A stretch of DNA of 55,425 bases from a virus (Duplodnaviria; Caudoviricetes): the IMG/VR virus record IMGVR_UViG_3300037420_001739, positions 1 through 55,425 of that record; one strand, written 5' to 3'. Every line of letters starts with the position of its first letter. Within the stretch, counting starts at the first letter, position 1. The translations under genes and the position numbers were made by a program. Shown here piece by piece: positions 1-42,616 of the stretch. The notes beneath the pieces were generated by a model. The model saw only the letters and a list, made by a program, of their open reading frames with translations. It was not told the origin of the DNA and made no database searches.

Positions 1-152
1 ACAGTTTTCTTCTTTGGCATAACGGATCAATTTTGAATTAACATGAACTCTTTATAGATATCGTTGAATTGCTTTGCTGCATACTCCGCTAAAGAGCTAT
101 CACGGAAGCAAAGGCGGGAGCCGACAGACGAGTAGACGTAGTGGCAGTAGAC
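1..152. repeat. Terminal direct repeat (copy of 55274-55425); circular-genome assembly overlap
   Basis: 1-126 is identical to 55274-55399; the last 26 bp differ at 8 positions, all inside the DGR variable repeat. The gene stopping at 27 is followed by the start of the 54811-55293 gene in both copies. Confidence 0.95.
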
Positions 153-512
153 GCAAAACAGACGAAAGCCAGAACCCTGCATAAAGAACCAGGGATAATG
201 TTTTTCCTCACTATCGTCATCCCAATCAGGTATCCATCCTTCATTCAGAGCGGATGTAATTACAATCAATTTGCAGTAAGCATTTATAGAGCTGATATGC
301 TTATCCAGGAACTGGCTGTGTGATGAATGCAGCACGTCTGCAGGATCAATCCCTAAAACTGTACAGGCGTCTTCAAACGATTTTACTTTATCTGTGATGT
401 TCTCAGGAACAATTTTACCGAACAGCGATTCAAGCAATTGTTTGCCTTTATCATCAGCTTTTGTGAAGGCACTTAGCACTTCAGATCTGGAAGGTGTTTG
501 TAATTCTTGCAT
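27..512 (-). CDS. DGR target protein 1 (remote target, ~161 aa, unknown function)
   Basis: Likely start MQELQ at 512, just after the polymerase stop. Paralogous to 6696-7082 and 7092-7550 (VKSFEDAC..LG, ALNEGWxPDW, YPWF, GFRL..VGSRLCF). Contains the VR at 108-175. Confidence 0.9.
   Translation of the reverse strand: MQELQTPSRSEVLSAFTKADDKGKQLLESLFGKIVPENITDKVKSFEDACTVLGIDPADVLHSSHSQFLDKHISSINAYCKLIVITSALNEGWIPDWDDDSEEKHYPWFFMQGSGFRLFCVYCHYVYSSVGSRLCFRDSSLAEYAAKQFNDIYKEFMLIQN
108..175 (-). repeat. DGR variable repeat VR1
   Basis: 68-bp ungapped match to the TR at 6515-6582 with 15 mismatches, all at TR adenines (coding strand). Confidence 0.95.
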
Positions 513-522
513 TGTTATAGTT

Positions 523-2481
523 TTAATCTTTTTTATAGTAAAGTGTTTCGTAACTCTCTGCTTTGAGCGGTAGTCCTTTCGCCCAGGGAATTGGAGTTCC
601 CATGATTCTGTCAACTTCTTTTGTGGATCCTTTGCCTTCCGGCATTTCCATCACAACTTCATCATGCACATGCATCACTATTTTATAACCGGTTCTGTGC
701 AGTCTTAAAATCGCATCCGCTAGTACATCCCTTGCAACTGCCTGTACAATGTTCTCGACAAGCTTACCGCCGTAGGTCTGTTGTAAACTCCATTGCTTTG
801 TTGTTTGATCCATTCCTTCGTAGTACAGTGACATACCTCCAAACTTGTTTGCTCTAAGCTGTGGTTTCAAATAAGAAAGCCTTCTTTTGCTGGGAAGTTC
901 AATGAAGAGAATTCCTTTTTCCTTAATGAATCGTATGCCGTGTGAAATGGATGTTGGACCGTCAGTCATTGCGTTTAGTGCAGCATCTTCAACAGTGTTC
1001 CAGTAAGCAACGATCTTTTTATTCGCCTGGCGCCACATGGCAACAAGCTTTGGAAGTTCCTCTTCCGGAATGCGTTTTTCTTTTGGTGTTTTATTCCCGA
1101 TCTCAATTCGTATGATAGCAGCAGGTCCGCCCTGGTAACCAAGTGCCAGCTCTGACATTTTTCCTTTTTGCCTGAGATCACTTCCTTTCGTTACGGATTC
1201 AATCGGCACTTTGAACATTTGCGATGCAGAGGCTTCATAGATCTTTCCATGCGTGTTAAATACATCGAGTCTCCATTTTTCACCCGATAACCAGGCGATC
1301 ACTCTTGCTTCAATGGCTGCAAAGTCAGCAACGATAAAACGGTGACCTGGTGAAGCAACAAAGGCCGTGCGTACAAGCTGAGACAGCGTATCAGGAACAG
1401 AATCGAATAACAGTTCGAGCGAATCAAGATCACCGGCTCTCACCAACTGCCTTGCGATATCAAGGTCCTGCATCTCATTACGCGGAAGGTTTTGCACCTG
1501 TACCAATCTTCCTGCCCACCTGCCTGTCCTGTTAGCGCCATAGTATTGCAACAGTCCTCGAACACGGTTGTCGGGACAAATCGCTTTTGTCATGGCAACA
1601 TATTTCTTCACCGAGGTTTTGGACATTTCCTGTCGCAGCTCCAAAACTCTTTTTACGGTAGGATCAGTAATTGCGTCAATGGATTCCGCTATCGATGCTT
1701 TATTTAAACTCGGCGCATCTACCCCTTCATTCAGCAACCAATCTTTTAACTGCGCAACACTATTCGGGTTAGAAAGCCCTGTTATCTCGACAGCTTCCTG
1801 CGTTAATAGTTGCTGGTGCTGGTAATCGAGTTTAATAGCGTTGTGAACAAATTCAGGATCTACAAGGATGCCAGTATCGTTAATTGTTTGATCAATATGC
1901 CAAAGAATTTTTTCAGTTGTCGGAGGTTCAAAGAATGCGATCTTACCGCGAATAGCCTGTTCCACTTCAACATCTTTTACGCAGTATGCTTTGAACTGGT
2001 TCCATTTTTCAGGATTGTGCTGCGGCAGGTTCCTGGTTCTTCCGCCATTTACTTTTGTAGGCTTGCAGGGAAGAGAGAAATATTTGATCAGCGCTTTACC
2101 TGCTGCATCTTTTTGCGCTTGCAGTTTGAGGATCTTCGCCACAGCTTCCAGAGACAACGGGAGTCCAAGCATGGTAGATTTTGCCATGGTGCACTCCCAT
2201 TGATCAACAGGAAGAGACAGTTTGAAGTGTTTGCGAATACAAACACGTTCGAAATTGGCGTTGTGGGCTGTCTTTATTATACTCGGGTTAGTAAGTGCGT
2301 AAAGAATATGCGAAGGCAGTTGTTCGCCTTGTGCCAGGTCAACGATTTCAACAGGGTCGTTATTGAGAGAATAAGCAAACATCAGGATCTCGAAATCCGG
2401 TGCTTCCACGTAGCGGTATACACCCGACTTTGTAAGGTCAATTGATGAATAAGTTTCGATATCGATTCCTAGTGTTTGCAT
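523..2481 (-). CDS. polA: Phage family A DNA polymerase (3'-5' exonuclease plus polymerase domain)
   Basis: ExoI DIETYS, ExoII HNANFER, ExoIII YCVKD, motif A DFAAIEAR, motif B RQKGKMSELALGY, motif C HVHDE. Confidence 0.95.
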   Translation of the reverse strand: MQTLGIDIETYSSIDLTKSGVYRYVEAPDFEILMFAYSLNNDPVEIVDLAQGEQLPSHILYALTNPSIIKTAHNANFERVCIRKHFKLSLPVDQWECTMAKSTMLGLPLSLEAVAKILKLQAQKDAAGKALIKYFSLPCKPTKVNGGRTRNLPQHNPEKWNQFKAYCVKDVEVEQAIRGKIAFFEPPTTEKILWHIDQTINDTGILVDPEFVHNAIKLDYQHQQLLTQEAVEITGLSNPNSVAQLKDWLLNEGVDAPSLNKASIAESIDAITDPTVKRVLELRQEMSKTSVKKYVAMTKAICPDNRVRGLLQYYGANRTGRWAGRLVQVQNLPRNEMQDLDIARQLVRAGDLDSLELLFDSVPDTLSQLVRTAFVASPGHRFIVADFAAIEARVIAWLSGEKWRLDVFNTHGKIYEASASQMFKVPIESVTKGSDLRQKGKMSELALGYQGGPAAIIRIEIGNKTPKEKRIPEEELPKLVAMWRQANKKIVAYWNTVEDAALNAMTDGPTSISHGIRFIKEKGILFIELPSKRRLSYLKPQLRANKFGGMSLYYEGMDQTTKQWSLQQTYGGKLVENIVQAVARDVLADAILRLHRTGYKIVMHVHDEVVMEMPEGKGSTKEVDRIMGTPIPWAKGLPLKAESYETLYYKKD

Positions 2482-2494
2482 TGAATAAGTTGTT

Positions 2495-2539
2495 TGCCCC
2501 TGTAAAGGATTCGAACCTTTACAAGCACCATTCAGGGAA
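2495..2539 (-). other. tRNA-like minihelix (T-loop hairpin plus acceptor-like stem) upstream of polA
   Basis: Minus strand TCCCTG-AATGGTGCT-TGTAAAGG-TTCGAAT-CCTTTACA-GGGGCA; canonical TTCGAAT T-loop, no D or anticodon arm. Confidence 0.5.
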
Positions 2540-2806
2540 TTAAACCAATACGCCTCCTATCACCTCAATGCTTGCATTACAAGTGGTGTATTGCGGTTCG
2601 TCATTGACAAAATAACCGTGTCCACTTGCAGCCAGTTTCAATACTGGTGGCTGCGTTTTGTTCATGTTTTGCTGTACCAGTCCAATCAAGTGCGGAAGAG
2701 CCGCATCATATTCCGTTTTTGAAGGCCCGGTTAAAGTTGCGCTCTGATCTTCCAAAGCCTTAACGATCTTGTCTGGATTTCCGATAAAATATGCTGACCA
2801 TGACAT
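2540..2806 (-). CDS. Hypothetical protein
   Basis: ATG-started ORF in the co-oriented operon. Confidence 0.7.
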   Translation of the reverse strand: MSWSAYFIGNPDKIVKALEDQSATLTGPSKTEYDAALPHLIGLVQQNMNKTQPPVLKLAASGHGYFVNDEPQYTTCNASIEVIGGVLV

Positions 2807-2844
2807 AATATTTGCTCTGTTACCTATACACAGAAAGGTTTTAT

Positions 2845-3030
2845 TTATCTTTCTCCGGCTTCTTTTTTAAGTGCATCCAGGTTATCAATAATGTACCTTC
2901 TTACTTCATCATGATTACAACCTTCGTTGTATAACCAAAGCAGGTATTTGGCAGGCACATCGACCATAGCTTTGCCTCTGTATTTGCCAAACGGCATTGG
3001 TGAATTATCAGTGAGCGTTTGAGTAGTCAT
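2845..3030 (-). CDS. DUF3820-like small protein
   Basis: MPFGKYRGK...VPAKYLLWL signature. Confidence 0.8.
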   Translation of the reverse strand: MTTQTLTDNSPMPFGKYRGKAMVDVPAKYLLWLYNEGCNHDEVRRYIIDNLDALKKEAGER

Positions 3031-3031
3031 G

Positions 3032-3247
3032 TTAATAAGAATAAGGTTGATAGCCTAGCGTTGCTTGAATGAAAGTGTCAGCTTTCAGGTGCTTCTTTTC
3101 ATCACTATTGCACGTGCAACATTTAGAACACTCCTGACAGTTGTCGCATACTTCAGTCTTATGATGCCCGTATCGCTGACCGCAACCGGGACAAGAGATT
3201 TGTTCCTTTGGAACTCCATATTGTTTATCTATATCGTGTTTGGACAT
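3032..3247 (-). CDS. Small Cys-rich putative zinc-binding protein
   Basis: CPGC, CDNC, CSKCCTC motifs. Confidence 0.7.
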   Translation of the reverse strand: MSKHDIDKQYGVPKEQISCPGCGQRYGHHKTEVCDNCQECSKCCTCNSDEKKHLKADTFIQATLGYQPYSY

Positions 3248-3307
3248 AAAAGGAGTTTTAAAAAGGGAGCAGAGTAGAAACTCACTCCCGTATTATGAGA
3301 ACATTGT

Positions 3308-3862
3308 TTAAATCAGATCATCATCTTTCTCGGCAACCGCTTCGAAATCATCTTCTGCTCTGCTGCGTCCTCCGAGAGGTTCACCGTCAGCAAGCTTCTG
3401 AATATTGTTCAGGCCTGCACCGATGCCTTTGTTTCCGTTTTTGTTGAACGGATAAAGATTGATGGATGCACGAACGTAACAGCCGCTGTACAGATCCGCT
3501 TGATCCAGAATAGGATTCATATCCTTGTCGACAAGACCAGGCTTTTGTTTACACTTCACGTTAATGAAGTAGTGACCTTCATACGTTTCATCACCTTCTT
3601 TCTCTGTGTCGCCATCGCGAAGAGGAAGTTTCAGGTTGGCAGTCTTGCCGCCGAATACTTTTGTTTTCCCGTTCTCAATAGCGTTTTTCTCAGCGGCTTT
3701 GATCTTGTTAATCGTCACCTTGTCCGATTTCGGGATCAATAGAGCGCAGGAATAAAACTTCTGTCCGCCATCTTCCATTGATGTAGGTTCGAACAGGTGT
3801 GCGTAACTCAGTCTGCATTTGCCGGTTACGACTTTGGTTGATTGTTCTTTTACTTCAGCCAT
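3308..3862 (-). CDS. Single-stranded DNA-binding protein (DUF2815/gp2.5-like)
   Basis: RLSYAHLFEP, LRDGD, YSGCY, GLNNIQKLADGEPLGG and an acidic C-terminal tail; usual position upstream of polA. Confidence 0.9.
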   Translation of the reverse strand: MAEVKEQSTKVVTGKCRLSYAHLFEPTSMEDGGQKFYSCALLIPKSDKVTINKIKAAEKNAIENGKTKVFGGKTANLKLPLRDGDTEKEGDETYEGHYFINVKCKQKPGLVDKDMNPILDQADLYSGCYVRASINLYPFNKNGNKGIGAGLNNIQKLADGEPLGGRSRAEDDFEAVAEKDDDLI

Positions 3863-3888
3863 TTTTCTAATTTTTAAATGTTTACGAT

Positions 3889-5070
3889 TTATATTTCTGT
3901 TTCGACGTAAGCTTCTTCAAAGTCCTTGCGTGCAGCGTCCACACTATTCAATTCCTCACGCTTATCACTAAGCGGCGCAAGTGTTGGTTTGCCTTGTGGT
4001 TTGATAATTAGATCGGACAACACGAGAGAAAATTCTTTCTTGCCGATCGCTTTCTCCATTGCGGTAATACCAAGCAATTCACGTTTGTAAATGAGGTCTT
4101 CAGCAAAACCTTTTTCAACCAGGCGTTGAGCGACTGCAGTATCATCGGAATAAGTCCTGTTGCTTCTGCCTTCCACCAGCTTAAAGCCTGGCCACTTCTT
4201 ACCATTCAACACGGACTCACTCAATGCGTATTCATTCACACTTTTTAGCCAGCTGGTGAAGTTTGCAGACCTTGCAAGAATGTCCGCGATCTCTTCATCC
4301 GTTAATAATTCAGGAGTAGCAAAATCGTGACGTGCGATCTCGAGATTGTAATCAGCATTTGCCTTGCAAACTGCTTTTGCTTTACAGAACTGGCAGTGTG
4401 TACCTGGTTCAAATTCACCTTCACCAGCAAAGGCGAGAGCTGCTTTAGGTTTTAATTCTAATTCTGCCCAGGTGAGTAGATCATCAACTGATATTTCAAA
4501 CGTTGAGAAGTTATCGATACGTGGTTGAAAGATCGTCATGCGAACAGTATCGATATCGTAAGCGAAGATGAATTCCTTCAAAGCGCCTAATGCATATAGC
4601 ATCATTTGCTTATTGTTTTCTGCTGATACAAGCACGCCCTTGCCGTACTTCAGATCAATGATCTCCATCGTACCGTCAGCAATGATTACGCAGTCACCAG
4701 TACCAAAACCTTCAGGCACATACTCGGTAAGGTTTAACTTATGTTCGAGGTAGATCACTGCATCCCTGGTATGTGACTGTGCTTCGTAAAAGCGTTCCAG
4801 GACAAACACAGAATAAGATTCTGCATGTTCCTGCATTGCTGTGTCGAACAATTCATTCGCTTCGATCTTTTTCAGGTCCCGCTGGTAAACCTGTTTACTG
4901 ATCCGCTTTAGTTTATGTTTCAGGATTAGTTCACCAAGCGAGTGCGCAAGTGTGCCTTCCTCTGCAACCTTTCCCGCTTTGTCGGGGAACTGTTGTTCGA
5001 GTCTTGCCGAAGGCGTACACGATAACCAGCGATGCGCACCCGAAGGTGAAAGAATAGCGTGTGCACTCAT
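3889..5070 (-). CDS. DUF2800 / Cas4-like PD-(D/E)XK exonuclease
   Basis: HAILSPSGAHRWLSC, GFGTGD, IIDLKYGKG, QMMLYALG, HCQFCKAKAVC. Confidence 0.9.
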   Translation of the reverse strand: MSAHAILSPSGAHRWLSCTPSARLEQQFPDKAGKVAEEGTLAHSLGELILKHKLKRISKQVYQRDLKKIEANELFDTAMQEHAESYSVFVLERFYEAQSHTRDAVIYLEHKLNLTEYVPEGFGTGDCVIIADGTMEIIDLKYGKGVLVSAENNKQMMLYALGALKEFIFAYDIDTVRMTIFQPRIDNFSTFEISVDDLLTWAELELKPKAALAFAGEGEFEPGTHCQFCKAKAVCKANADYNLEIARHDFATPELLTDEEIADILARSANFTSWLKSVNEYALSESVLNGKKWPGFKLVEGRSNRTYSDDTAVAQRLVEKGFAEDLIYKRELLGITAMEKAIGKKEFSLVLSDLIIKPQGKPTLAPLSDKREELNSVDAARKDFEEAYVETEI

Positions 5071-5071
5071 G

Positions 5072-5452
5072 TTAAGCAGCTTTAATTTTATCGTATACTT
5101 CTTTGAATTGGTCCGGCTTAAACTCGCTGAGTTTTTTCACACCGTATTCGTCGAGAATTGCTTTCACCTTTTCCTGTTTACCCGCGTCTTTCTTTTCCAG
5201 GTATAGCTGGCGGATATCAGTAAAAGAAATCTCCTGAGCCGTTTCCTGTGCTGTTGCTTCCGGTGCCGCAGCTTGTGCAGGAGGTGTTTCTTTTACCTCT
5301 TCTTTTACAGGCTCTGTTTTTTGTGCTTTAGATGCCTTCGCAGGGGAAGCAGTCATTTCTTTAACGGGTGCCTGCTGGCCACCGGAAAAGCCTTTCAATA
5401 ATTCGATCACGGCCGGATCGAGAGTGATCGTGTGTCTAACTAAGATTTCCAT
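5072..5452 (-). CDS. Conserved phage protein usually preceding DUF2800 (Ala/Pro/Glu-rich linker, helical C-terminus)
   Basis: C-terminal VKAILDEYGVKKLSEFKP pattern and gene context; its start overlaps the RT stop. Confidence 0.75.
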   Translation of the reverse strand: MEILVRHTITLDPAVIELLKGFSGGQQAPVKEMTASPAKASKAQKTEPVKEEVKETPPAQAAAPEATAQETAQEISFTDIRQLYLEKKDAGKQEKVKAILDEYGVKKLSEFKPDQFKEVYDKIKAA

Positions 5453-6414
5453 GATTCTGATTTTTGATTTATGATTTTGTTTAAAAGGTTTTTACTGTTG
5501 CAGTGCTTCGCCCAGCCATAGTAGGAAACAACGGACTGCATTCTCGGCGCTTTAGCTACCATGCGGGCAAAACGTTTCTTAATGCTTTTACGCAGCAGTG
5601 TGTGCGTGTGATAAAACTTATAGCCTACGAAGTCGATACCTCTTGCATGAACCGGAAACACCTGGTAGTTTTCTTTTACAGTTAGTTTTAACCTGGTTGA
5701 TAAATAGATTCTGATCTCGGTAAGCAATTCATGCAGATGTTCTTTGTTATCGGAAAGGATCACGATATCATCTGCGTATCTGAAGTAATAACGGACTTGC
5801 ATTGTTTCTTTGATCCAGTGATCAAACCAGGTGAGGTAATAGTTAGCAAGGAACTGAGACAGATAATTTCCTATCGGTAATCCTTCTGCGCTATCGATCA
5901 CTTCATCCAGTAACCAAAGAAGATCTTCGTCTTTGAATTTTCTGCGAAGCAGGTTTTTAAGGATAGTGTGATCAACAGAAGGATAGAACTTTTTGATATC
6001 AAGCTTCAAACAATATTTCGTTGCTGCTTCATCGTTCAAAGCCTTTCTAAGATTTCTTGCAGCCTTGTGGATGCCTCTTTTTTTAATACAACTGTAAGTA
6101 TCAGCTGTGAATGTTTTAACGAACACCGGTTCGATGATATTCATCACGGCATGATGCAGGATGCGATCAGGGTAATAAGGAAGACGGAAGATCTCTCGCT
6201 CTTTCGGCTCGTAAATTTTAAACGTTGTGTACGGAGAGGTCTTGTAGGTTTTATTCTTTAGCGACTCATGAAGCGCTAGTAAATTCTCCTGCCAATTGCT
6301 TCTGTGTTGAATTACTCCGTACTGGCCAGACTTGCGCTTTGATGCTTTCAAGTCTGCCAGTTGGAGATTTTCCAGTGTGATAATCCGTCCGTATATATTG
6401 CTGATCCGTTTCAT
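5440..6414 (-). CDS. DGR reverse transcriptase
   Basis: DRILHHA, LKLDIKKFYPS, GLPIGNYLSQ (DGR-type GxxxSQ), RYADD, GIDFVGY. Likely start MKRISNIY at 6414 (ORF extends to 6426). Adjacent to the TR. Confidence 0.96.
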   Translation of the reverse strand: MKRISNIYGRIITLENLQLADLKASKRKSGQYGVIQHRSNWQENLLALHESLKNKTYKTSPYTTFKIYEPKEREIFRLPYYPDRILHHAVMNIIEPVFVKTFTADTYSCIKKRGIHKAARNLRKALNDEAATKYCLKLDIKKFYPSVDHTILKNLLRRKFKDEDLLWLLDEVIDSAEGLPIGNYLSQFLANYYLTWFDHWIKETMQVRYYFRYADDIVILSDNKEHLHELLTEIRIYLSTRLKLTVKENYQVFPVHARGIDFVGYKFYHTHTLLRKSIKKRFARMVAKAPRMQSVVSYYGWAKHCNSKNLLNKIINQKSESWKS

Positions 6415-6514
6415 TCTTTGCTTCAATTGAGTCGCGTTCCTTTGCAGTACCGGCGCCTCGTTTCTTATGTTTATTTTTTACCTTGTTGGTAGGGTCTGTA
6501 CTTTCAAAAATTTT

Positions 6515-6582
6515 GCAATTGCGGGAGCTGACATTCGAGTTGTTGTAGTTGTAGTTGACGTTATTCAGACGAAAGCCAGAAC
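6515..6582 (-). ncRNA. DGR template repeat (TR)
   Basis: Non-coding; reads TCT GGC TTT CGT CTG AAT AAC GTC AAC TAC AAC TAC AAC AAC TCG AAT GTC AGC TCC CGC AAT TGC. It has 19 adenines, and three VRs differ from it only at A. Confidence 0.95.
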
Positions 6583-6695
6583 TAAAGAGGCTCGAACTTC
6601 GCTACGTGTTAGTACACAACCTTAATATGATTCCATCCACGGTTCGGTTGTTTTGAACCAGATGATAAAGCGTCTTATCAGGCGTTTGATCTTTC

Positions 6696-7082
6696 TCACA
6701 ACAGCATGAACTCTTTGTATAACTTTTTTATCTGTGGTTGTTTCACTGCCCACTCAGCTAACTCCCTACTCCGGAAGCAAAGGCGGGAGCCGACATTCGA
6801 GCAGTCGTAGCCGTAGCTGACGCAAAACAGACGAAAGCCAGAACGGTTATCGCTATCTTTATTCAAATCCCACCAGCCGTAATATTTTGGTTGATTCGTG
6901 TCCTGCCAATTTGGTTTCCAGTCCCCGTTCAAAGCCTGGACAATGATCATCAGTTTTCCTATTGCGATGAGTGCTTTTGCATGCTGCTTTGGAAAGCCAA
7001 CAACTTTAGGAGTTGCCTTCGCAGGATCCAGTTTGAGCGCCTTACATGCGGCCTCGAATGTTTTGATTTTTGGTTGTGACAT
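6696..7082 (-). CDS. DGR target protein 2 (128 aa)
   Basis: Paralog of targets 1 and 3; contains the VR at 6777-6844. Confidence 0.92.
   Translation of the reverse strand: MSQPKIKTFEAACKALKLDPAKATPKVVGFPKQHAKALIAIGKLMIIVQALNGDWKPNWQDTNQPKYYGWWDLNKDSDNRSGFRLFCVSYGYDCSNVGSRLCFRSRELAEWAVKQPQIKKLYKEFMLL
6777..6844 (-). repeat. DGR variable repeat VR2
   Basis: 68-bp match to the TR with 13 mismatches, all at TR adenines. Confidence 0.95.
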
Positions 7083-7091
7083 TGTAGATGA

Positions 7092-7550
7092 TTATGCAGT
7101 GAAGAATTGTTTATACAGGTCGAAGAATTGTGCAGCTGCGTATTCCGCTACTTCCCTTTTTTGGAAGCAAAGGCGGGAGCCGACATTCGAGTGGCCGTAG
7201 AGGTAGCGGACGTCAACCAGACGAAAGCCAGGTTTATTCATGTAAAACCAAGGGTAATACTTAGGTTCGTTAGAATTATTCCAATCCGGTGTCCATCCTT
7301 CGTTCAATGCCTTTATGATCACTTTTAGTTTACGATAGGCAATTTCATCTTCACTCATTTCATCATACCCAATTATTTCTGAACTGATGCCTAACACTTC
7401 ACACGCATCACCGTAGGTTTTAACGCGATCAGTAATTTTTTGTTGAAAGAATTTTTCACCGAATGTATCGTGAAGCATAGCCTTGAATTCTGATGAAGCA
7501 GTAGAGTAAAGCTTCAAGGCATTCTTTTCGTCAATCTGTAAATTTTTCAT
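7092..7550 (-). CDS. DGR target protein 3 (152 aa)
   Basis: Paralog of targets 1 and 2; contains the VR at 7167-7231. Confidence 0.92.
   Translation of the reverse strand: MKNLQIDEKNALKLYSTASSEFKAMLHDTFGEKFFQQKITDRVKTYGDACEVLGISSEIIGYDEMSEDEIAYRKLKVIIKALNEGWTPDWNNSNEPKYYPWFYMNKPGFRLVDVRYLYGHSNVGSRLCFQKREVAEYAAAQFFDLYKQFFTA
7167..7231 (-). repeat. DGR variable repeat VR3
   Basis: 65-bp match to the TR with 13 mismatches, all at TR adenines. Confidence 0.95.
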
Positions 7551-7594
7551 CTTGTATATTTGTACTATCGCTTGAATAAATTTTGTTTAGGTGA

Positions 7595-7628
7595 AAAAGC
7601 CCGGTTTCCTCCACGTTGCCGGGCTTTT
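7595..7628. terminator. Likely bidirectional intrinsic terminator upstream of the DGR cassette
   Basis: AAAAGCCCGG-N14-CCGGGCTTTT, with T tracts on both strands. Confidence 0.65.
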
Positions 7629-7758
7629 AATTTTACTCTCCTTCACTTTCCGTTTCTTCTTCTGTGCTTTCTGTTGGTACCGATGGATCGATGTCATCCG
7701 GACGATTGAAATGTTTGTTCATGTTTCTTGTTTTTGAATTATGAATAAAAAAGGATCT

Positions 7759-8049
7759 CTATTTTTCGATGAGCATCTGGCTCAGTTCAGAAACCTCCTT
7801 CAACCTTCTCTCATTAGCACTGTAGTAAACGAACCTTCCTTCCCTGGTTGTTTTTACAAATCCCTGCTTTCTCAGGATGGCCAGATGCGAAGAGGCTACT
7901 GATTGTTCCAGGCCTAAATCTTTATACAGTTGGGTAACACAAACCTTCCCATGTCTGAGCAAGTATCCATAGATCTCCCTACGGAGCTTGTGGTTGATGG
8001 CTCTGAGCACTTGTGAGGCTTCCTTGATTTGGGTTATCTGTATTTGCAT
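7759..8049 (-). CDS. ArsR/SmtB-family HTH transcriptional regulator
   Basis: LRAINHKLRREI, CVTQLY..LGLEQSVASSHLAILRKQGFVKTTREGRFVYY; likely start MQIQ at 8049. Confidence 0.9.
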   Translation of the reverse strand: MQIQITQIKEASQVLRAINHKLRREIYGYLLRHGKVCVTQLYKDLGLEQSVASSHLAILRKQGFVKTTREGRFVYYSANERRLKEVSELSQMLIEK

Positions 8050-8297
8050 AAAATGTTTTTTTAAAAGAGGCCAACGTGGAAACATCGGCCGTTGATTTGG
8101 TTAGGACATTTCACATCCTATCTAACGATTGCTAGTATGAAAAAGAACTTGATTTCAATTGATGCCGGAAGTAGAAACAACCGGCCGATATGTTTAACAA
8201 CAATTCGAGAGCGATTCAACCAGGCTAACGGCTTCCTCACCTATTGCTTTCACTAATTCTTTCCTTGCATCCCGTGCCTGATCTTTTAATTCAGTAA

Positions 8298-8489
8298 TCA
8301 ACTTTTTGAAACCTCCCACGTTTCTACCGGATAATCCTTCTCGGATGGAATATCCGATTGCTGTATCATGGTCGGTTTGCGATAGTATTTTATAGAGTCG
8401 TTGATATTTCTCGTTGTTGGTTTCTTTTCCTTGTATGGAATAGCCCATGTTATCAGGTAAAGAATTCCTATGATCAGTATTATTTCCAT
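8298..8489 (-). CDS. Small membrane protein (overlaps alternative ORF 8194-8658)
   Basis: N-terminal hydrophobic helix; which of the two overlapping frames is used is uncertain. Confidence 0.45.
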   Translation of the reverse strand: MEIILIIGILYLITWAIPYKEKKPTTRNINDSIKYYRKPTMIQQSDIPSEKDYPVETWEVSKS

Positions 8490-8834
8490 ATAGCGATTGG
8501 TTTTGTTTCATTGTTACTGTCCTTTTTAGTATACCTCCTTTGCCTACTTCCCACCTGTAAATCTCATCACCGCATGGACTGAAATGAGCTACGATCATGA
8601 ACAATACCGTACTGAGTATAGTAAGTGCTACAGGTAGTAAAATCCATATTGGAGGCATAGTGTTTGGTTTTTAATAACCGAGATTTTTTTGCGGCCCTAC
8701 ATGGCCTTTTTTCATTACAGGATAATTACCACACTTGTCCTTTCTATAGAGTATTCCACAGTTACACGCCTTAGACGTTATCCCATAAGCAATAAGGCCC
8801 ACGATCAACATTCTTTTTATAAGAAATCGGATGA

Positions 8835-9038
8835 TCATTCGTAAACAGGGTAACGGGTGATTAATAATTCACAGCTTCTGATCAGGTGCGCATCACACAA
8901 AGCGTCCGTAAACGTGTACCGCATGGCGCGGGACATTTCCAGCAGCTTTTCACAGCTTTTCAATTGCTTCATCGTAACACAACTATTGATCGTGTTAAGG
9001 ATGAAATAGTACACTTCCGCAGCGTTGATCTTTTTCAT
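8835..9038 (-). CDS. Hypothetical protein
   Basis: ATGA overlap with the upstream gene. Confidence 0.65.
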   Translation of the reverse strand: MKKINAAEVYYFILNTINSCVTMKQLKSCEKLLEMSRAMRYTFTDALCDAHLIRSCELLITRYPVYE

Positions 9039-9349
9039 CGTTTACCAAGGATTTTATGTTTAACACAAGCCTTTATAATCTTCCTTCTGATCACTGCAGT
9101 CATACCCGCATTTACAATCCACTTGCCTTCTTTAGGACTATAGAACCAGGTATGCTGAACTTCACTCACATTAACTGCGTGCATGAATAAATGCCAGATG
9201 ATTATAGAGCATAGAAGAGCAGCAGCAATGAATATTAATTCTATTGAGAAGCGGATCAGCAAACCCTTTGCACACTTCTTTGCATCCTTAATGAAGGAAT
9301 GCTCAAACTGCACTGGCTCGAAGCTGTAAGGAATAGATGTTGTGCTCAT
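9035..9349 (-). CDS. Hypothetical membrane protein
   Basis: Likely start MSTTS at 9349 (ATGA coupling); one transmembrane segment. Confidence 0.65.
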   Translation of the reverse strand: MSTTSIPYSFEPVQFEHSFIKDAKKCAKGLLIRFSIELIFIAAALLCSIIIWHLFMHAVNVSEVQHTWFYSPKEGKWIVNAGMTAVIRRKIIKACVKHKILGKR

Positions 9350-9660
9350 GGTTGGACCTCCTTTTCGCCGGTTGCTTTGGCAATGAGGTTTTTTACTTGT
9401 TCTACAAATGGCAAGTCCAATCCGCAAACATCAAAATCCGTTTCTGTGTAGAGTTCTAGCAACTTGGTAAGGGATTCGAGCAATTCAGGTGCAGCAGCTA
9501 TTAGTCGGGCGTTCACTTTCCAAGCATACCTGCTTGCTTGGCGACCCGTGTAACCTTTGGAAGGCTCTTGACAAATAACCAGTTTGTCACTTACAACCCC
9601 TGGAAAATCTAATTCATCTTCAGGAGCGAACCACGGCCCTGGTGTGTGTTGTGTTTTCAT
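9346..9660 (-). CDS. Conserved phage early protein
   Basis: HTPGPW...NARLIAAAPELLE motif common in phage early regions. Confidence 0.8.
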   Translation of the reverse strand: MKTQHTPGPWFAPEDELDFPGVVSDKLVICQEPSKGYTGRQASRYAWKVNARLIAAAPELLESLTKLLELYTETDFDVCGLDLPFVEQVKNLIAKATGEKEVQP

Positions 9661-9911
9661 ACTACATCCCTCCTTTCTTTTTCCTCTTCCATCATTCTTT
9701 CAATTTCTTCATTCACATCCTGTACACGGGAAGAATGTTCAGCATATAGTTTACCGTTATGAAGGGTGTATTTATCTCCATGTTGATCGGTGCCGATATT
9801 GCCGTTCATTGTTACATGAAACCAAAAACCATTGCGGCTGTAGGAGATTACATTTCCGTTGCGCATTGCGGCGGAGCTTTGTGATTTGGTTTGAGAAGTG
9901 TAGTTTTGCAT
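9657..9911 (-). CDS. Hypothetical protein
   Basis: ATGA coupling with the downstream gene. Confidence 0.65.
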   Translation of the reverse strand: MQNYTSQTKSQSSAAMRNGNVISYSRNGFWFHVTMNGNIGTDQHGDKYTLHNGKLYAEHSSRVQDVNEEIERMMEEEKERRDVV

Positions 9912-9978
9912 CTGAGAAACTTTTTAAGTTTTTTAAGTGGTCAGTTTCGATTTCCAGTCAGAGCTGACCATTTTCTTT

Positions 9979-10161
9979 TTATTTCATCTTCGAATCAGCA
10001 TCCATAATTCTTTGCAGCTTCTTTTTCTTTCTGTCAGAGGGAGCACTTAACTGCTCCACCCTAGACAAAAAGTTTTTCAATTTTGGGAGATTAATATTCC
10101 CTTGATTGATAGTATTTAGAAGTAGACTGGCCTCACTTGATATCTGCTTTTCTATTTCCAC
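9979..10161 (-). CDS. Hypothetical protein
   Basis: Short ORF downstream of the cro-like gene. Confidence 0.5.
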   Translation of the reverse strand: MEIEKQISSEASLLLNTINQGNINLPKLKNFLSRVEQLSAPSDRKKKKLQRIMDADSKMK

Positions 10162-10243
10162 TTTTGCGAAATTTTTTGTTAACAGTTTCGGGTCTGATTA
10201 AAAGTTTTTATATTAGGATAGTAGATTTGTTGCATCTCGGACG

Positions 10244-10459
10244 TTAGGCGGCTACTCCATTCTTTTCCAGAATCTCTGAATCTTTCAATCCAGTAATCTT
10301 TCGAATTTCCACCAGTGCTGCAGCCTTTGTGAGTTCGTCATCGTTATCCTTGATATACCGCATGAGTGTTTGATCTGACACACCCAAGGCGATCGCAATT
10401 TCAAGTCGCCTCACCGGTTCGGCTTTGATTAGTGATAAGGCTTTTTGTGTGAGTTTCAT
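10244..10459 (-). CDS. Cro-like HTH regulator
   Basis: RLEIAIALGVSDQTLMRYI helix-turn-helix; divergent from the cI-like gene; likely start MKLT at 10459. Confidence 0.75.
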   Translation of the reverse strand: MKLTQKALSLIKAEPVRRLEIAIALGVSDQTLMRYIKDNDDELTKAAALVEIRKITGLKDSEILEKNGVAA

Positions 10460-10562
10460 TTGTTGAATATTATATTTGACTATCAAAAACAACAATGCGA
10501 ATATACGGTCAATGTTTACTAAAAGTCAATAGTCAACTTAGGCCTTAACAATCTTTTAACAC
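10460..10562. promoter_or_regulatory. Divergent lysis/lysogeny switch region
   Basis: Bacteroidota -7-like boxes TATATTTG (+, 10471) and TATATTCG (-, ~10498-10505); repeated TTGAC/GTCAA half-sites. Confidence 0.55.
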
Positions 10563-11075
10563 ATGTTAACTATGCCCACTGATGGCGCCATTCTCAAGGC
10601 CTTTATTGATCAATCCAGAATTCGACCTGTACGCATTTACACGGCGATGAAAATTAGTAAACAGGCATTTTATAAGCTATATAACAGTAAGGAGTTTGAG
10701 CTGGAGACAATTAGAAAAATAGAACAGGCGGTTGGTAAGCCCTGGGACGAAATAAGGTTGACTAATGTTGACGTCAACGTTTCCAATGAAACGGCCAAAC
10801 TGCCACTCGAAGACTTGGAAAAGAAGCAATCTTTAGAAAGAAGTATTGAAAATCTGACACGAACAGGAGAGATCAATGCTCACAACGAGACGATAAGAGC
10901 GGAGAATGAGAAAATGAGAATTGAAAATGATAAGATAACGGTTGAAAGTATCCGGCGTTTGGTTGATTTGTTGGAAGAAAAATACGGCAAACGTGTTGGG
11001 CCAACACTTCCGCCAGTAGGAACACCTGGAACCAAAAACCATAACCCTCGAAAACAAAAAAAGCCGGCCCAATAG
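10563..11075 (+). CDS. CI-like repressor (N-terminal HTH, coiled-coil C-terminus)
   Basis: IYTAMKISKQAFYKLY HTH-like segment; divergent from cro and near the integrase; no S24 peptidase motif visible. Confidence 0.6.
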   Translation: MLTMPTDGAILKAFIDQSRIRPVRIYTAMKISKQAFYKLYNSKEFELETIRKIEQAVGKPWDEIRLTNVDVNVSNETAKLPLEDLEKKQSLERSIENLTRTGEINAHNETIRAENEKMRIENDKITVESIRRLVDLLEEKYGKRVGPTLPPVGTPGTKNHNPRKQKKPAQ

Positions 11076-11107
11076 TGACCAGCTTTTTCTACTAACCCCA
11101 TAAGGAA

Positions 11108-11305
11108 TTAGTATTCACTTAAATTGAATAGCAAATCCATCACCTCGTCAGATACGAATTGAAACTTGTCTTCATGGCTCTGAATGGAGGGTGAAAACTT
11201 CGGACAGAATGAAAACATGCAATTCGATAAAAGACATCTGTTTTGATCTGGACATGCATCGCATAGTTGGACCTGCGCAATTTGCGTCTTATGGGACTGA
11301 TTCAT
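11108..11305 (-). CDS. Hypothetical Cys-rich protein
   Basis: ATG ORF with CxxC; no family recognised. Confidence 0.4.
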   Translation of the reverse strand: MNQSHKTQIAQVQLCDACPDQNRCLLSNCMFSFCPKFSPSIQSHEDKFQFVSDEVMDLLFNLSEY

Positions 11306-11621
11306 AGTGCTCTAAATTTGGTTCTGCCACCTGAATAATCCGTGTTTCGCCGATTAATCAGGACGTCGAAAATAGTACAGTTTACTAAAATGTTTAGTAA
11401 TTTTAAAGGAAATAGTTTTACACAGGGTTTTGAACAAAGTTGTTCACATTCTTCAAAAGTGTTCCAGTAAGTTTCATTCATGTGTTTTTAGGTTTAGAGG
11501 TTTCTGTTGAGGCAATCGTATTAGAAGGGCCGGCGAAAGTAAACGCAATTTCAATACATTAAGTGGTTTCACGTATACCCTTTCTCAACATACAACATTA
11601 ATTAACAATAGGTAAGTGTTT

Positions 11622-12824
11622 TTAATTAATCCCTTCGTCAAGTCTAGGCATTTTTGCTTTGATTAATTCCCTTGTAAGGTTTTTATGTTCACCAGTATAT
11701 GTAGCAGTAACCCTTTCATCTGAATGCCGAAAATGTTCCTTTGCGAGTGACAGAAGATTGTCAGCCCCTTCCCTCCTTTTAAGTCTTACTAAATCATCAG
11801 CAGAAAGTTTTTTTAGCGAGTATTGATCGACGTTTAGTTTCAATCCTTTCTTTACAATATTATTCCACCACAACGTTGTACTGTTGGAGTGCATCTTGTT
11901 TTTGCCGGGCATAAACATATTACCCTTACCTGCGAAGATGTAAAATTCAGGATCGTATTTTTCAAGCTTCATTTCCATTAATAGATCCATCACCCATTCA
12001 GGAATAGCAACATCACTTTCCACTCCGTTTTTTGTGATCTCTGCAGGCAATCTAAATACGCCTTGCAGTTTGTGCAACATATTAATTTTGATCTGTGTAA
12101 TTTCTTTTGGTCTGATGCCGCATCCATAAATCAGGGAGAGAAAACGAAAATAATTTCTGTGATATTCTTTGATGTGTGATACGATTGTGATTCGTTCATC
12201 TTGTGTTGGCGGCCGGTGCGCTACCTTCTTTAAAGTGTCTCTCGTTTTTATATCCCTGATCAAATTGGATTCCATTATATCCCACTCTACCAGTTCAGAA
12301 ACAAGTCCGGACAAAAAAGATCTGTAAGCATTGTAGCCATCGTTACCCAATTTGCGATCAGCAATCACCTGCTCCAGAATCAATTTAAAATCGATCTTCC
12401 TAAACTCCCTTATTGGCTTTGTGATTCCGATGTTATCGCACGCATTTTTAAGGTATTTGATTTTGGAAGAATAATCCTGCGATGTTTTGTATTTCCATGT
12501 TGGCTTCAATTTCAGTTCAGCAAAATCCAATGCATTGGAGAACTGCATTTGCTGTAATTCTTCAAGATCAATTTCCTTTTTTAGTTTTGAAGGATATGTA
12601 TTAGTAACAGGGTTCCATCCCCTTTCCAACCGTAGTTTAAGTGCAGTGATCATGGAGTTGGCAGAAAGGACCCGCTCTTTGTAATTGGAGATCGTATTTA
12701 AATCTGCTTTACGAGAGATTTGATGCCACTTACCGGCATAAAAAAACCGGAATCTCACGCGCCATGTTTTGTCCATGTCTGAAGATTCCGGATTCTTTGG
12801 ATAAATCGTTAGTTCTGACCACAT
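11622..12824 (-). CDS. int: Tyrosine integrase
   Basis: Catalytic R (GIRPKEI), K (TKNG), YSLKK box (Bacteroidota-type variant of HxxR), RHSD and TATY; adjacent to attP. Confidence 0.9.
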   Translation of the reverse strand: MWSELTIYPKNPESSDMDKTWRVRFRFFYAGKWHQISRKADLNTISNYKERVLSANSMITALKLRLERGWNPVTNTYPSKLKKEIDLEELQQMQFSNALDFAELKLKPTWKYKTSQDYSSKIKYLKNACDNIGITKPIREFRKIDFKLILEQVIADRKLGNDGYNAYRSFLSGLVSELVEWDIMESNLIRDIKTRDTLKKVAHRPPTQDERITIVSHIKEYHRNYFRFLSLIYGCGIRPKEITQIKINMLHKLQGVFRLPAEITKNGVESDVAIPEWVMDLLMEMKLEKYDPEFYIFAGKGNMFMPGKNKMHSNSTTLWWNNIVKKGLKLNVDQYSLKKLSADDLVRLKRREGADNLLSLAKEHFRHSDERVTATYTGEHKNLTRELIKAKMPRLDEGIN

Positions 12825-31615: not shown

Positions 31616-34600
31616 TTAAATGGTCCACTTTTTAGTCCCCGTAGTTACGTCAAACATCAGCTGGTACATTCGTTTAATCTCGGTAACAGTTGATGCGGTA
31701 TTGTTTTCAATATTGAGGTGAACATCGAGCGTTCTTTTTGCTATGGAAAGCTGCTCTATCGCCGTAATTCTCAACCCTCCCATCTGGCCAGCTAAAAGTT
31801 CCGCCGTCTGTTCGGTCATTGATTTGATGGCGCCCTTTAATGAATTGGTATCGGCAGTCGATGATTGCAGGTTAATGCCTGATATCTGCTCAAACTGCTG
31901 GACCTTGGCATCGAAATCGGCAATCGAAGAATTGAATAGATTCTTCAAGTTATCGATCTCGCTTGCTGTTAGCGTGTTCCCGCTTTCAGATGCTTTGGCA
32001 AATTCATCGAAGAAGGTTTTTAACGCCGGCTCCAGGTACTGAAACTTTAAAGAAGATATCATCGCCTGCCGCATGAGGTCTTCAAACGTTCCTGCGAAAT
32101 CTGCTGCACTGTGCAATCCATTTTTGAAGCCATCCGAAATGGAATCAACTATCGAACTGAATGTTGTTCCGGTAAATATTTCATCAAGCTTCTGCTGATT
32201 TTCTTCAAGAACAGCATTGATATCCTGCCCCTCTTGTTTTAATTTGAGCAGCTGCTCAAAAATTGCTTTTGCTTTATCAGTAAGCTGGCCCTTGTTAAAC
32301 AACTCTTCGATCTGATCAAATGTTTTGCCCGCAAGCGACTCAAATGCATCTTTAGCGGCGGATCCTTTTCCAAAAAGAAGTTTAAAGGGGTTGATCTCAA
32401 TTTTCTTTCCCTTAATAAATTGCTCATTCTGCAGTTGTGCAAAGAGCTGGTCGAATTCCTGTTGGTTGGCTGTCTTTTGCTGCTGGAGTTCTTTTTTTTG
32501 TGCCTCTAATCCGTCAAGCGTCAGTTTGTTATTTAATATCAGTTGTCTTTCCCGTTCCCGAAGAAGTTCCTGGTACTGAATCTCCCCGGTGATCAATTGA
32601 GCATTAAATTGATGCACCTGGTCTGTGGCCTCTTTTAATTTTCGGGTTACCTGTTTGGCAAGATTTACTATGACGGAAACAACTTTGAAAACTGCGTCAA
32701 CTATTCCTGTAATAGAGGTGAGCGATTTTAGAAGGTCGCCACTTCCTTTATTTTCATTGAATGTTTTCAGCGCTTTCGCAAGGTCGATAGACCCACTTAC
32801 TAAATTTGACATCGTTCCCAATGCGTTAGATAGCTCTTCGCTGAATGGCTGTACCGCACTGGCCAGCGTATCAAGATTTCCCTTTATGGTACCCGCTTTG
32901 TCTATAAACTCGTCGAGTTCAGCGTTGGAATCGCTGATAGAATTTTCCAGATCTTTCCATTCGTCAATTGCCGCTTTTATGGCATCCTTTGTTTTTTTGT
33001 CAAGGTTAGAGCTTTGCAACAATTTTTCAAGCGCCTCAATCTCTTCCTGGATTCTTTGTTTGGTGAACGATACGATATTTTGATGTAAGGCCCGGTACCC
33101 TTTTGTTTGGGCGGCAAGGCTTTGTCCTAACGCCTTGAGGTTTTCGTCTTTGGCTTCCTTGATAACCTGAAGCCTGTCCTCCAGCTCCTGACCGTTAAAA
33201 TCCTTCTTTAATTCAGCAACGTCTTTTTCATACTGCTTTTCGTAGTCCAATCTTTTTTGTGAGAAGGATGCCGTTTCAGTCAATAGTCGCTTTAAGTTTT
33301 CAAGTCTTTCCTTGAAAAGATCTTCCTCATTTTTTTTCTGGGCTTCCGACATGGCTTTGGTGATAGCCTCCATCCTGCCCGGGTTGATCAGATTAATATT
33401 TTTCTTCGCTTCTGCTTCCAAGAAAGACGTAAACGAGGTGAAGCCCTTGGTTTGCTCGGAGAAAATTTCCTGCGCTTTTTCAAGGCCAATATCCTTTACT
33501 GACTGCTGAAAGTCCTCGAATATTTTCTTTTGTGCTTCCAGGTCATTTTTAAATATCTCGGAACCCTGCTTAATCAATGCTGTATTGCCAATCTCCTTAT
33601 TTCGGGTATCATTTACGGCTGCAAAATCAAGGAGGCCGAATTTCTGAACATTGGTATTGTTCTTACGATTGAATTCATCCGTTTTCCGGTTGAATTCAAC
33701 GATCTTGTCAATTAGATTATCGTACTTCTCATTGATCTTGTCCAGTTCCGATTGTTCCTTTGTTAATCCTGATTGTTTGGCATCGCGTTGAAGAGCAGCC
33801 AACTGCTCCAAAATACTTTTCCGCTCATTGAGAATGGTATTTGTCTCACTCTCCAGTTTATTCGATTCAGCGATTTCATGTTTCGTGGCACCAGCGATTC
33901 TCTTTCGCTCATCTTCAAGTGAATTGATCTTTTTTTGATGCTCTTGGAATTCTTTTGAATTGGTGGAAAGTTCCTCCTGGGCTTTTTTTTCAGCGGCTAT
34001 CTCATCGTCGATAACTTTAAGGGTACGCTTTTTTGCTTCCTGAGTATTGCTTTCGGCTTTTACTTGTGTTTCACCAAGTTCTTTTGACACCTTCATCTGA
34101 CTCTCAAGATCTTCATTCGTAATTCTTAGTTTAGTCTCAAGACCAATAATTTCACCTTCCAATCCCAAATCGAAATTTTCTCCCTCCCCCTGTTTTTTGT
34201 TTAACTCGTCAATCCTTTTTTGCAGCCTTTGTTTTTCGGCAACAAATTTATTTTCGTTTTTAATACTTGCTTCAAGCGCATCTTTGTTAGCTTCTAACGC
34301 AAACTGCTTACGCAGAGAATTTAGATAGTTATCTACATTGGCAGCTAAATTCTGATAGGAAATAGTTTTTGCATCGATGCCTTTTACAATTTCTGGATCA
34401 ATTGCTTTAAGCTGATTATAAATATTTACTCTTTCCTGCTCTGATAAGTTGGCGTTTTTTAAAGCATCTATGTACGGACGAATCTTTGCTTCAGCGTCTG
34501 ATAACTTATCTCCAATTTTATCCTGAGCATCGGCAAGCAACTCAGATTTTGTTTTTACGTCTGATGCTGTTTTCCCGTATACCAGCAATGCTGTTACCAA

Positions 34601-39260: not shown

Positions 39261-40346
39261 TTAGTGGACAGCCACCAAAATGTAAATCTGATTGATTGCT
39301 TCGAAGGCTGGGCATGCGTTCAACTCACCGATGGTAAATTCACCGAACGGATTTGTTTGCGCATACTTGCTGATCAAAGCATTGTTGAACTTCGCATAAG
39401 TAACATGTTCAACCGGACGCATCTCTTCCATTGCAAGAGCATTCTTCACAGTTCCGAGCTTGCCAGCAGGAACAAATGTTACGTTCTCTGTTTTGAAAGG
39501 ATTGGTTGCGGTCTGGTTAACGCCATCTTTTTCAACTGCAACATATTCGTCCACCAATTCGATAACTGGGAACTTATTTGCCTGCATGAAAATGTTCACG
39601 TTATCCAAAGTCACCAGGATGTTACCTGATTGTTTGAAACCAAGGAAGTTTGAAAGCAAGCTTTTAACCTCTGTGATCTTTTGGAAATTAATGAACTGAG
39701 ATGGAGTCATCAGCATTTTCGAGTAAGCAATACCCTTACCGCGACCTGCGTTAACGATTGCAGGAATGTCAACGGATAAAGGTGTAGCTGAAGCGCTGTC
39801 CCATGATACTGCGCTGTTCCCAGTGCAATCGGAAGGAAGCAACAAATCCAGATCAGGTAGAACCAATCCGTCAGGATTGGTAGTTGATGAAATGCTAATC
39901 TTTCCTGTGGATATTGCCTGCAAAGCCATGTAATCGATACGCTTCATAAGGCCGTTACCCACGGCTTTAATATCATTGAAAAGAAAGTCCAGCAACTGTT
40001 GTTTTTTGGTCTGATCACTTACTGGCAAAGCTTGGAGTGTTAAGAAATTACGATAATCGCTTTCCTTCATTTTCCTACCAGTTTTAATAGCTGGAATTTC
40101 AGCGGACAGCGTGCTCATATCCGGCCGGCTTCTCCAAGGTGCGGGTGATTCGCGATCCACAACGGAAGCTGCGGATTCGATTCTTGATGCTCCGATCACT
40201 GACTTGTAGTCAAGTGTGGCCTGGGGAACATCCCAGTCAAAATAATTTTGGAACCAAGTAGGAGCGAACTTGTCCAAACTGTTGTCAATTACCATCTGCA
40301 TTCTGGTGGCATATTGACCGAAGATTGATTTAATAGTGTTTGCCAT
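39261..40346 (-). CDS. Major capsid protein (lambda gpE-like)
   Basis: 361 aa; AASVVDRESPAP, EIPAIK, RIDYMALQAISTGKI; follows the decoration gene. Confidence 0.85.
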   Translation of the reverse strand: MANTIKSIFGQYATRMQMVIDNSLDKFAPTWFQNYFDWDVPQATLDYKSVIGASRIESAASVVDRESPAPWRSRPDMSTLSAEIPAIKTGRKMKESDYRNFLTLQALPVSDQTKKQQLLDFLFNDIKAVGNGLMKRIDYMALQAISTGKISISSTTNPDGLVLPDLDLLLPSDCTGNSAVSWDSASATPLSVDIPAIVNAGRGKGIAYSKMLMTPSQFINFQKITEVKSLLSNFLGFKQSGNILVTLDNVNIFMQANKFPVIELVDEYVAVEKDGVNQTATNPFKTENVTFVPAGKLGTVKNALAMEEMRPVEHVTYAKFNNALISKYAQTNPFGEFTIGELNACPAFEAINQIYILVAVH

Positions 40347-42442: not shown

Positions 42443-42616
42443 ATGGCGCTTCCTGACCACATACAGAAGATTGTTGATAAAATAATCGCAGGCGAAAAAT
42501 TGTCCCGGGAAGAAGAGCTTATTTACTTCACTGAGGTGATGGGGTACACAAAAGAGGAGGCCTTGCGTGAGTTTGCCAAAATTGAAAACAAAAAACCAGG
42601 TTTGATCATCGACTGA
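42443..42616 (+). CDS. Hypothetical protein (57 aa, not in the ORF track)
   Basis: MALPDHIQKIVDKIIAGEKLSPEEELIYFTEVMGYTKEEALREFAKIENKKPGLIID*. Confidence 0.6.
   Translation: MALPDHIQKIVDKIIAGEKLSREEELIYFTEVMGYTKEEALREFAKIENKKPGLIID

Follow-up and report, generated by a model that had tools for sequence, protein, structure and literature searches.

Two alleles of a remote variable repeat meet at the mismatched contig ends of a circularly assembling soil phage genome carrying a diversity-generating retroelement

Genome organization and the retroelement locus

The DNA analysed here, called the window below, is an entire assembly made of a single contig of 55,425 nt, and it represents the genome (about 55,273 nt) of a tailed phage, for which a tyrosine-integrase-like gene at 11622-12824 (phrog_1, 5.5e-23) suggests a temperate life style. 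Virion genes were recognized for a tape measure protein (31616-35668), a major head protein (39261-40346), a portal protein (44944-46407) and the large terminase (46404-47888). A 589-aa head-morphogenesis or minor head protein (42606-44375) also matches phrog_16625, annotated as 'Bxa ADP-ribosyl transferase' (2.7e-76), in two stretches, the best at residues 194-346 of the protein. There were no Rfam matches and no tRNA genes in the window, and a nucleotide search of deposited phages with positions 1-8000 gave no match.

The genes of interest lie on the minus strand in the order HTH regulator (8085-7759), target gene T3 (7092-7550, 152 aa), target gene T2 (6696-7082, 128 aa), template repeat (TR, 6515-6582), reverse transcriptase (RT, 5440-6426, 328 aa), a 126-aa ORF (5072-5452), a DUF2800 nuclease, an Enc34-type SSB, a family A DNA polymerase (PolA) and target gene T1 (27-512, 161 aa from an ATG; 27-614 from a TTG in the ORF list), which sits between the PolA gene and the junction of the contig ends. 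Together, two adjacent targets, the TR, the RT and one remote target form an intact diversity-generating retroelement (DGR) without Avd: no Avd-like gene was found among the scanned neighbouring ORFs using Pfam, PHROGs and NCBIfam, and the stretch from T2 to the TR contains no ORF. The 126-aa ORF directly after the RT has a low-complexity middle part rich in Ala, Pro, Glu and Lys and matches only PHROGs of unassigned function (phrog_408, 4.9e-13); because it adjoins the RT in none of the 121 related loci described below, it probably does not serve the DGR as an accessory gene.

The RT contains a YADD motif and matches RVT_1 (6e-21) and phrog_1423 (7e-124). Its best solved relative is 8ub7, a 328-aa reverse transcriptase (E 2.6e-49) that we take to be the BPP-1 enzyme, far ahead of group II intron RT (2.6e-18), and it does not reach the curated thresholds of the models for group II, retron and Drt enzymes. 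It matches 179 deposited phage records, including CrAssphage LMMB and Bordetella phages, and the closest deposited RTs, from crAss-like gut phages, share 49–58% identity over 95–98% of the protein. It also carries the stretch IGNYLSQ, presumably a DGR RT signature. The enzyme is thus placed in the DGR clade of reverse transcriptases.

The non-coding TR is located in the interval from the T2 stop to the RT start, 88 nt upstream of the RT ORF; read in the frame of the targets it gives S-G-F-R-L-N-N-V-N-Y-N-Y-N-N-S-N-V-S and is rich in AAC and AAT codons. A BLAST search of positions 1-400 against the window returned, besides the variable repeat of T1 itself, copies at 6515-6582, 6766-6844 and 7163-7231. 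The TR homologue in T1 (VR1, 108-175, minus strand; columns seen varying, 127-158) is about 6.3 kb from the TR, while VR2 (6777-6844) and VR3 (7167-7231) lie in the adjacent T2 and T3, and all VRs are near the 3' ends of their genes, ending about 27–30 codons ahead of the stops. When the 59-nt core was compared with the TR, all differences fell on TR adenines in VR1 as read at the left end of the contig (13 of 13), in VR2 (11 of 11), in VR3 (11 of 11) and in a fragment of a second VR1 allele at the right end (6 of 6 over the 39 nt present in the window), that is 41 of 41 across four VR copies. In the GC-rich 3' end, all VR copies share three differences at adenine sites, and these look like a fixed distinction of the IMH/IMH* kind rather than mutagenesis. 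These shared differences lie in 108-126, 6777-6795 and 7167-7185 versus TR 6515-6533, and the corresponding codons (G131, L134) are conserved in the target family. Stems predicted after the three VRs were no better than those of shuffled sequences (z -0.73, +0.65 and -0.58).

The target proteins

The three targets are paralogous, T2 and T3 showing 47–48% identity to T1 with 39 columns invariant in all three, and are filed under phrog_11581, whose function is unknown in PHROGs. A profile search with the family retrieved 5,196 clusters (50% identity) at E<=1e-3 and 3,938 at E<=1e-10, and among the best 150 of the 5,196 clusters the sole longer forms are tandem doublets of 229–353 aa. There was no relative in Pfam or NCBIfam, the sequence profile found nothing below E 0.1 in PDB, and 0 of 99 family members match the lectin-type Pfam families.

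Confident AlphaFold models were obtained, with a pLDDT of 90.2 and a pTM of 0.78 for T1, and with a pLDDT of 84.4 for T2, in which the VR part reaches 57–67. The T1 model consists of an N-terminal helical part, a beta hairpin (104-112 and 115-124), a loop and two C-terminal helices, and the variable codons are located at the end of the hairpin and in the loop. Foldseek of the target models against PDB gave 0 matches at E<=1e-3, and VIA-align against 48,161 chains gave a best Z of 3.7 for the T1 and T2 models. Neither model thus matched a solved fold, the C-type lectin fold included, although a missing match is no proof of a different fold; according to Roux et al. (PMC8144416), annotated VR regions are systematically C-type lectin folds. 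The seven BFVD matches at E<=1e-3 are all uncharacterised phage proteins, some of them crAss-like, and ESM Atlas returned hypothetical viral clusters only.

The cassette in related loci

With the alignment of the three paralogues, 313 relatives were found in IMG/VR and 41 in genomes, while the search of IMG/VR with the single T1 protein found none; 80 of the 313 were kept, giving together with the 41 a set of 121 loci. Relatives in genomes are almost all from Bacteroidota, such as Chryseobacterium, Pedobacter, Dyadobacter, Chitinophagaceae and others, which suggests that the host of the phage is probably a soil Bacteroidota bacterium. A literature search under the Bacteroidota genus names found nothing on DGRs.

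An RT N-terminus follows downstream on the same strand in 76 of the 121 loci, and of these 76, a TR/VR pair is present in 75 and is adenine-biased in 74, with 1,989 of 2,047 mismatches on TR adenines. Two VRs are present in 64 loci and three in nine, and in four loci a VR lies more than 2 kb away. These loci thus form a populous and coherent DGR lineage whose small targets stand in tandem. Each gene that neighbours the cassette of the window is kept in only 0–6 of the 121 loci: the DUF2800, SSB and PolA genes follow the RT in 5–6, and the HTH, 126-aa and 160-aa (54811-55293) neighbours in none. A PHROG scan of ten flanking ORFs from five other loci assigned functions to two, an HNH endonuclease and an FtsK/exonuclease-like protein. 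Judged from these unrelated surroundings, the target-target-TR-RT cassette seems to move as a module.

In seven of the 121 related loci, the contig ends at or in a VR, in a target gene or at most 155 nt past its stop: inside the target gene in L034, L099, L110 and L118, and 24, 39 and 155 nt after the stop in L082, L055 and L103, respectively. In L082, whose name marks it as a k127 assembly, and in L055 the ends lie 120 and 132 nt beyond the variable stretch. These ends agree with Benler et al. (2021, PMC8008677), who state that contig assemblies are broken by the variable repeats of DGRs, and VR heterogeneity probably often breaks the assemblies of this lineage.

The mismatched contig ends and the circular assembly

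Since the window is a whole one-contig assembly, its first and last stretches are truly the two ends of a contig. The initial annotation, made from the sequence alone, had pointed out that positions 1-126 and 55274-55399 are identical and that eight of the 26 following bases differ, and this was borne out by self-comparison of the window: the overlap has no mismatch over 126 nt, and in its continuation, 127-152 versus 55400-55425, the bases at 127, 128, 134, 136, 137, 142, 143 and 145 differ. On the coding (minus) strand all eight differences are TR adenine columns, again as had been proposed, although only 12 of the 26 columns are adenines (P=3.2e-4). The minus-strand translations of the two ends contain VYCHYVYSSVGSRLCF and VYYGYHDSNVGSRLCF, and the two C-terminal peptides, VYCHYVYSSVG... 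and VYYGYHDSNVG..., reproduce the reported ones. The left copy of the overlap (1-126) comprises the 3' end of T1 and the downstream spacer, the right copy (55274-55399) is the wrap-around of a circular assembly path, and the last 26 nt (55400-55425, minus strand) are the fragment of the second VR1 allele. Subtracting the 152-nt wrap-around leaves a unit of 55,273 nt. An identical overlap of this length, 126 nt, is k-1 for k=127, and metagenome assemblers commonly use 127 as their largest word size.

Several observations support the earlier proposal of a circular genome. The 160-aa ORF, to which no function is assigned and for which searches of Pfam, PHROGs and NCBIfam gave no family, starts inside the overlap on the minus strand, 6 nt beyond the T1 stop, so the gene order is continuous over the junction. 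In four public metagenome runs (X1, X2, X5 and X6, described in the next section), the contig extends upstream past window position 1 in every case, by 39,705 nt (X1), 41,642, 4,860 and 1,467 nt, and the junction is crossed by single-copy contigs. The X1 contig is 55,303 nt long, which is the 55,273-nt unit plus 30; assuming that the word size of the Logan assemblies is k=31, a closed cycle would leave just such an excess. Closure is based on the length arithmetic of X1, and such an assembly fits a circular molecule and circularly permuted or concatemeric DNA alike. Despite its integrase-like gene, the genome is assembled in X1 as a free closed circle.

That the contig ends do carry two versions of the repeat could also mean that there is a true second partial copy of the gene, the terminal redundancy of a linear genome reaching into VR1 and its copies being diversified separately. 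A physical direct terminal repeat should be identical throughout, but the overlap here has eight mismatches in the last 26 of its 152 nt. Moreover, the right-end copy stops within the VR and lacks homology to the VR 5' part, the X1 contig leaves no room for a further copy, and each run has one allele contig with the same flanks running upstream of position 1. No second VR1 copy was seen in the contigs of the four runs, an outcome that speaks against one of the findings that would have overturned the initial reading, a genuine second gene copy. We consider this explanation extremely unlikely. A consequence of the mismatched overlap is that, as we suppose, a completeness test relying on exact repeats would probably label this complete genome as linear or incomplete.

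Two VR1 alleles in public soil metagenomes

Window positions 1-8000 are contained in 11 soil or rhizosphere metagenome runs, which are stored as assembled contigs only, and four of the 11 were compared with positions 1-12000 of the 55,425 at a minimum likeness of 80%. These runs possibly include the window's own source and are therefore not fully independent of it, and Logan contigs retain the main variant only, minor variants being dropped. In X1, a contig of 55,303 nt (depth 15) covers 1-12000 with no difference, and in X2 a contig of 51,983 nt (depth 11.5) covers 1-10341, also with none; both carry the left-end allele of the window (allele a). In X5, a contig of 11,280 nt (depth 8.1) covering 1-6420 has 11 differences, and in X6 a contig of 2,362 nt (depth 6.5) covering 1-895 has the same 11, about 73% of this run having been read and parts of 5,575-9,480 lacking cover. 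The 11 sites comprise the eight of the window ends and three more, 154, 155 and 157, which fall just past where the window ends, so that X5 and X6 carry the right-end allele (allele b). The two alleles of one gene assumed by the initial annotation are thus found at the same place in natural populations. Each of the 11 differences falls in a TR adenine column (17 of the 59 columns are adenines, P=4.4e-8) and, by hand translation, allele b changes seven codons of allele a, from F-C-V-Y-C-H-Y-V-Y-S-S to Y-D-V-Y-Y-G-Y-H-D-S-N.

Outside these sites the genomes are the same. To the right of VR1 the X5 contig is identical to the window for 6,263 nt, and further X5 contigs covering 6396-6631 (the TR), 6610-11104 (VR2 and VR3) and 11132-11681 have no difference, so that, going by X5, 11 substitutions within 31 nt separate the allele a and allele b genomes and none occurs in the other about 11.6 kb compared; in X6 there is no difference beyond the 11 in 895 nt. 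The TR shows 0 differences in X1, X2 and X5, and VR2 and VR3 are unchanged wherever covered. Natural variation is thus confined to adenine columns of a VR while the TR is constant, the pattern that had been predicted from the sequence alone, here seen in contigs. The VR that differs is the remote VR1, and the TR-adjacent VR2 and VR3 are the same in the compared contigs. With two alleles and one changed target, this is an anecdote rather than a rate, documenting one event or few.

The X5 contigs break around the TR, at about 6396-6420 and 6610-6631, and polymorphism of the TR was considered as a cause and rejected, the TR contig having no difference; neighbouring contigs there overlap by just 22–25 nt at a depth of 4.4, X6 is similarly broken at many unrelated places, and these look like low-coverage breaks. 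In X6, one contig follows VR2 up to 6816 and then continues in a VR-like but different sequence. It was considered as a VR2 allele and rejected, as it differs at non-adenine columns too, and we read it as the target gene of another phage. On this reading, at least one further related phage or DGR target is present in the same soil community.

The other differences (1195-1270, 9107-9179 and insertions near 10114) belong to distinct 151-nt contigs of depth 2–3 that are 13–17% divergent, and we read them as other organisms. In those lying on 1163-1311 and 9075-9241 (X1 and X2), the changes are mostly at every third base. The existence of such relatives in the runs would suit the view that two long-diverged strains were co-assembled and that the VR difference is old standing variation, uninformative on recent DGR activity. 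The divergent contigs, however, are separate 151-nt records on 1163-1311 and 9075-9241 outside the allele b genome, and the allele b contigs have 0 differences outside 127-157 over about 11.6 kb (X5) and 895 nt (X6), which makes this view very unlikely.

An origin of allele b by gene conversion with its paralogue VR2 or VR3 as donor, three such VRs lying within 7.3 kb, or by sequencing or assembly error, appears practically negligible: allele b is unlike VR2 and VR3 at the variable columns, is read at a depth of 8.1 and 6.5 in two runs, and every change is on a TR adenine. As the same eight substitutions are read letter for letter in X5 and X6, they are not an error of the window assembly. Scans of viral and metagenome contig collections with VR1-flank patterns gave no further VR1 alleles, and a 66-nt stretch from the 3' end of T1 had no match in metagenome contigs, records near the window being possibly excluded from both.

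Interpretation of the mismatched ends

Taken together, we interpret the contig as the wrap-around assembly of a circularly assembling phage in which mutagenic retrohoming has recently acted on VR1, and we put the probability of this at about 0.9. By analogy with the Bordetella phage BPP-1, the RT would copy TR RNA into cDNA, placing random bases opposite adenines, and the mutagenized cDNA would replace the variable repeat of a target gene. Such a retrohoming event would have hit the remote VR1 recently, given that both alleles occur in otherwise identical genomes; the assembler would then have completed one turn with allele a, passed into the shared 126 nt again and ended 26 nt into allele b, the source read set presumably having contained both alleles. 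The initial annotation had considered retrohoming to be ongoing or recent; a recent event is supported, and its interpretation holds in essentials.

Where the two alleles met is less certain. A mixed population within the source sample is a plausible cause of the assembly break, and stays only plausible because the alleles were seen in different runs and Logan contigs keep the main variant. The alleles could be genuine products of the DGR and the break could nevertheless come from pooled reads, in a co-assembly of samples fixed for different VR1 alleles. Each compared run indeed has a single allele (a in X1 and X2, b in X5 and X6), the depth of the differing base equalling the total depth at every differing place, and the X1 circle closes through VR1 without a break; as minor variants are dropped from Logan contigs, however, one allele per run is also compatible with a mixture. 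Pooling of this kind is a possibility of some weight, which we hold to be the less probable course.

Comparison with known DGRs and meaning of the targets

Compared with the prototype of BPP-1 (mtd-avd-TR-brt), the present DGR has a related RT, with five Bordetella phage records among its 179 matches, an AAC-rich TR, adenine-only TR/VR differences and a VR near the target 3' end; its fixed TR/VR differences in the GC-rich 3' end are comparable to IMH versus IMH* as presented in PMC5758913. In contrast to BPP-1 with its single target, the element lacks avd and has three targets, the remote one at about 6.3 kb from the TR. These targets are proteins of 128–161 aa encoded in the early or replication region rather than a tail fibre, without a C-type lectin match, with about 27 residues after the VR and without a supported downstream hairpin. 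The target-TR-RT cassette without an accessory gene resembles the avd-less DGRs of architecture A of Wu et al. (2018, PMC5758913), where such cassettes are given as 75 of 372 DGRs, 29% of DGRs are stated to lack Avd, targets that are remote or multiple are reported, and the VR classes named are CLec1-3, Ig1-2 and UVR.

The DGR of Quimbyvirus, in the account of Benler et al. (PMC8008677), is likewise from a Bacteroidota phage and has a target that is remote from the structural genes and neighboured by genes for methyltransferases and nucleases. It differs in that its targets are C-type lectins, one of them structural, and its RT is frameshifted, whereas the three targets here are non-structural by position and belong to an unannotated family.

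The phenomenon itself is expected and known, as metagenomic DGR activity (PMC8144416), VRs that break assemblies (PMC8008677), and remote or multiple targets and avd-less cassettes (PMC5758913) are all described in these sources; Roux et al. (2021, PMC8144416) give SNVs in 70.1% of VR loci in metagenomes. The present case is unusually clean, with 11 adenine-templated substitutions between two natural populations and nothing else in about 11.6 kb, and the allele pair can be seen as a retrohoming event preserved in public sequences. The changed site is in a remote target, a class that, in the words of the large survey itself, its method could not detect (PMC8144416).

The larger question concerns the target family, which has thousands of clusters without annotation or recognised fold and here stands amid early and DNA-metabolism genes. 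This position, together with N-termini not resembling signal peptides, suggests that the targets may be non-structural, intracellular binders. A role in counter-defence or host takeover would be a guess in line with the discussion of Quimbyvirus in PMC8008677. We only tentatively entertain, and rather doubt, the full proposal that the DGR diversifies a scaffold other than the C-type lectin, used in early-expressed intracellular binders for anti-defence or takeover and not in receptor-binding parts of the virion. If it is true, targets of a new kind are being diversified by a widespread DGR lineage of Bacteroidota phages, and the copy found to change in nature is the remote one.

The crAss-like DGRs (CrAssphage LMMB, cr55_1 and cr115_1) provide the closest deposited RTs, at the 49–58% identity given above, and cr56_1, cr60_1 and cr109_1 encode distant relatives of the target proteins; these are phages of about 100 kb from the human or animal gut, unlike the soil phage here, and the target of the LMMB DGR is described as a tail-collar fibre protein (PMC7290462). 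A distant homologue of the targets is also found in the Bacteroides phage LoVEphage (L122, MW660583.1 33613-34197), where it is annotated as 'hypothetical protein, No HHsearch hits' and is surrounded by resolvase, methyltransferase, PAPS reductase and radical SAM genes with no RT nearby. In the crAss-like cr56_1 and cr60_1, the distant homologues (NC_055890.1 5085-5426 and NC_055891.1 14169-14510) lie tens of kb from the RT.
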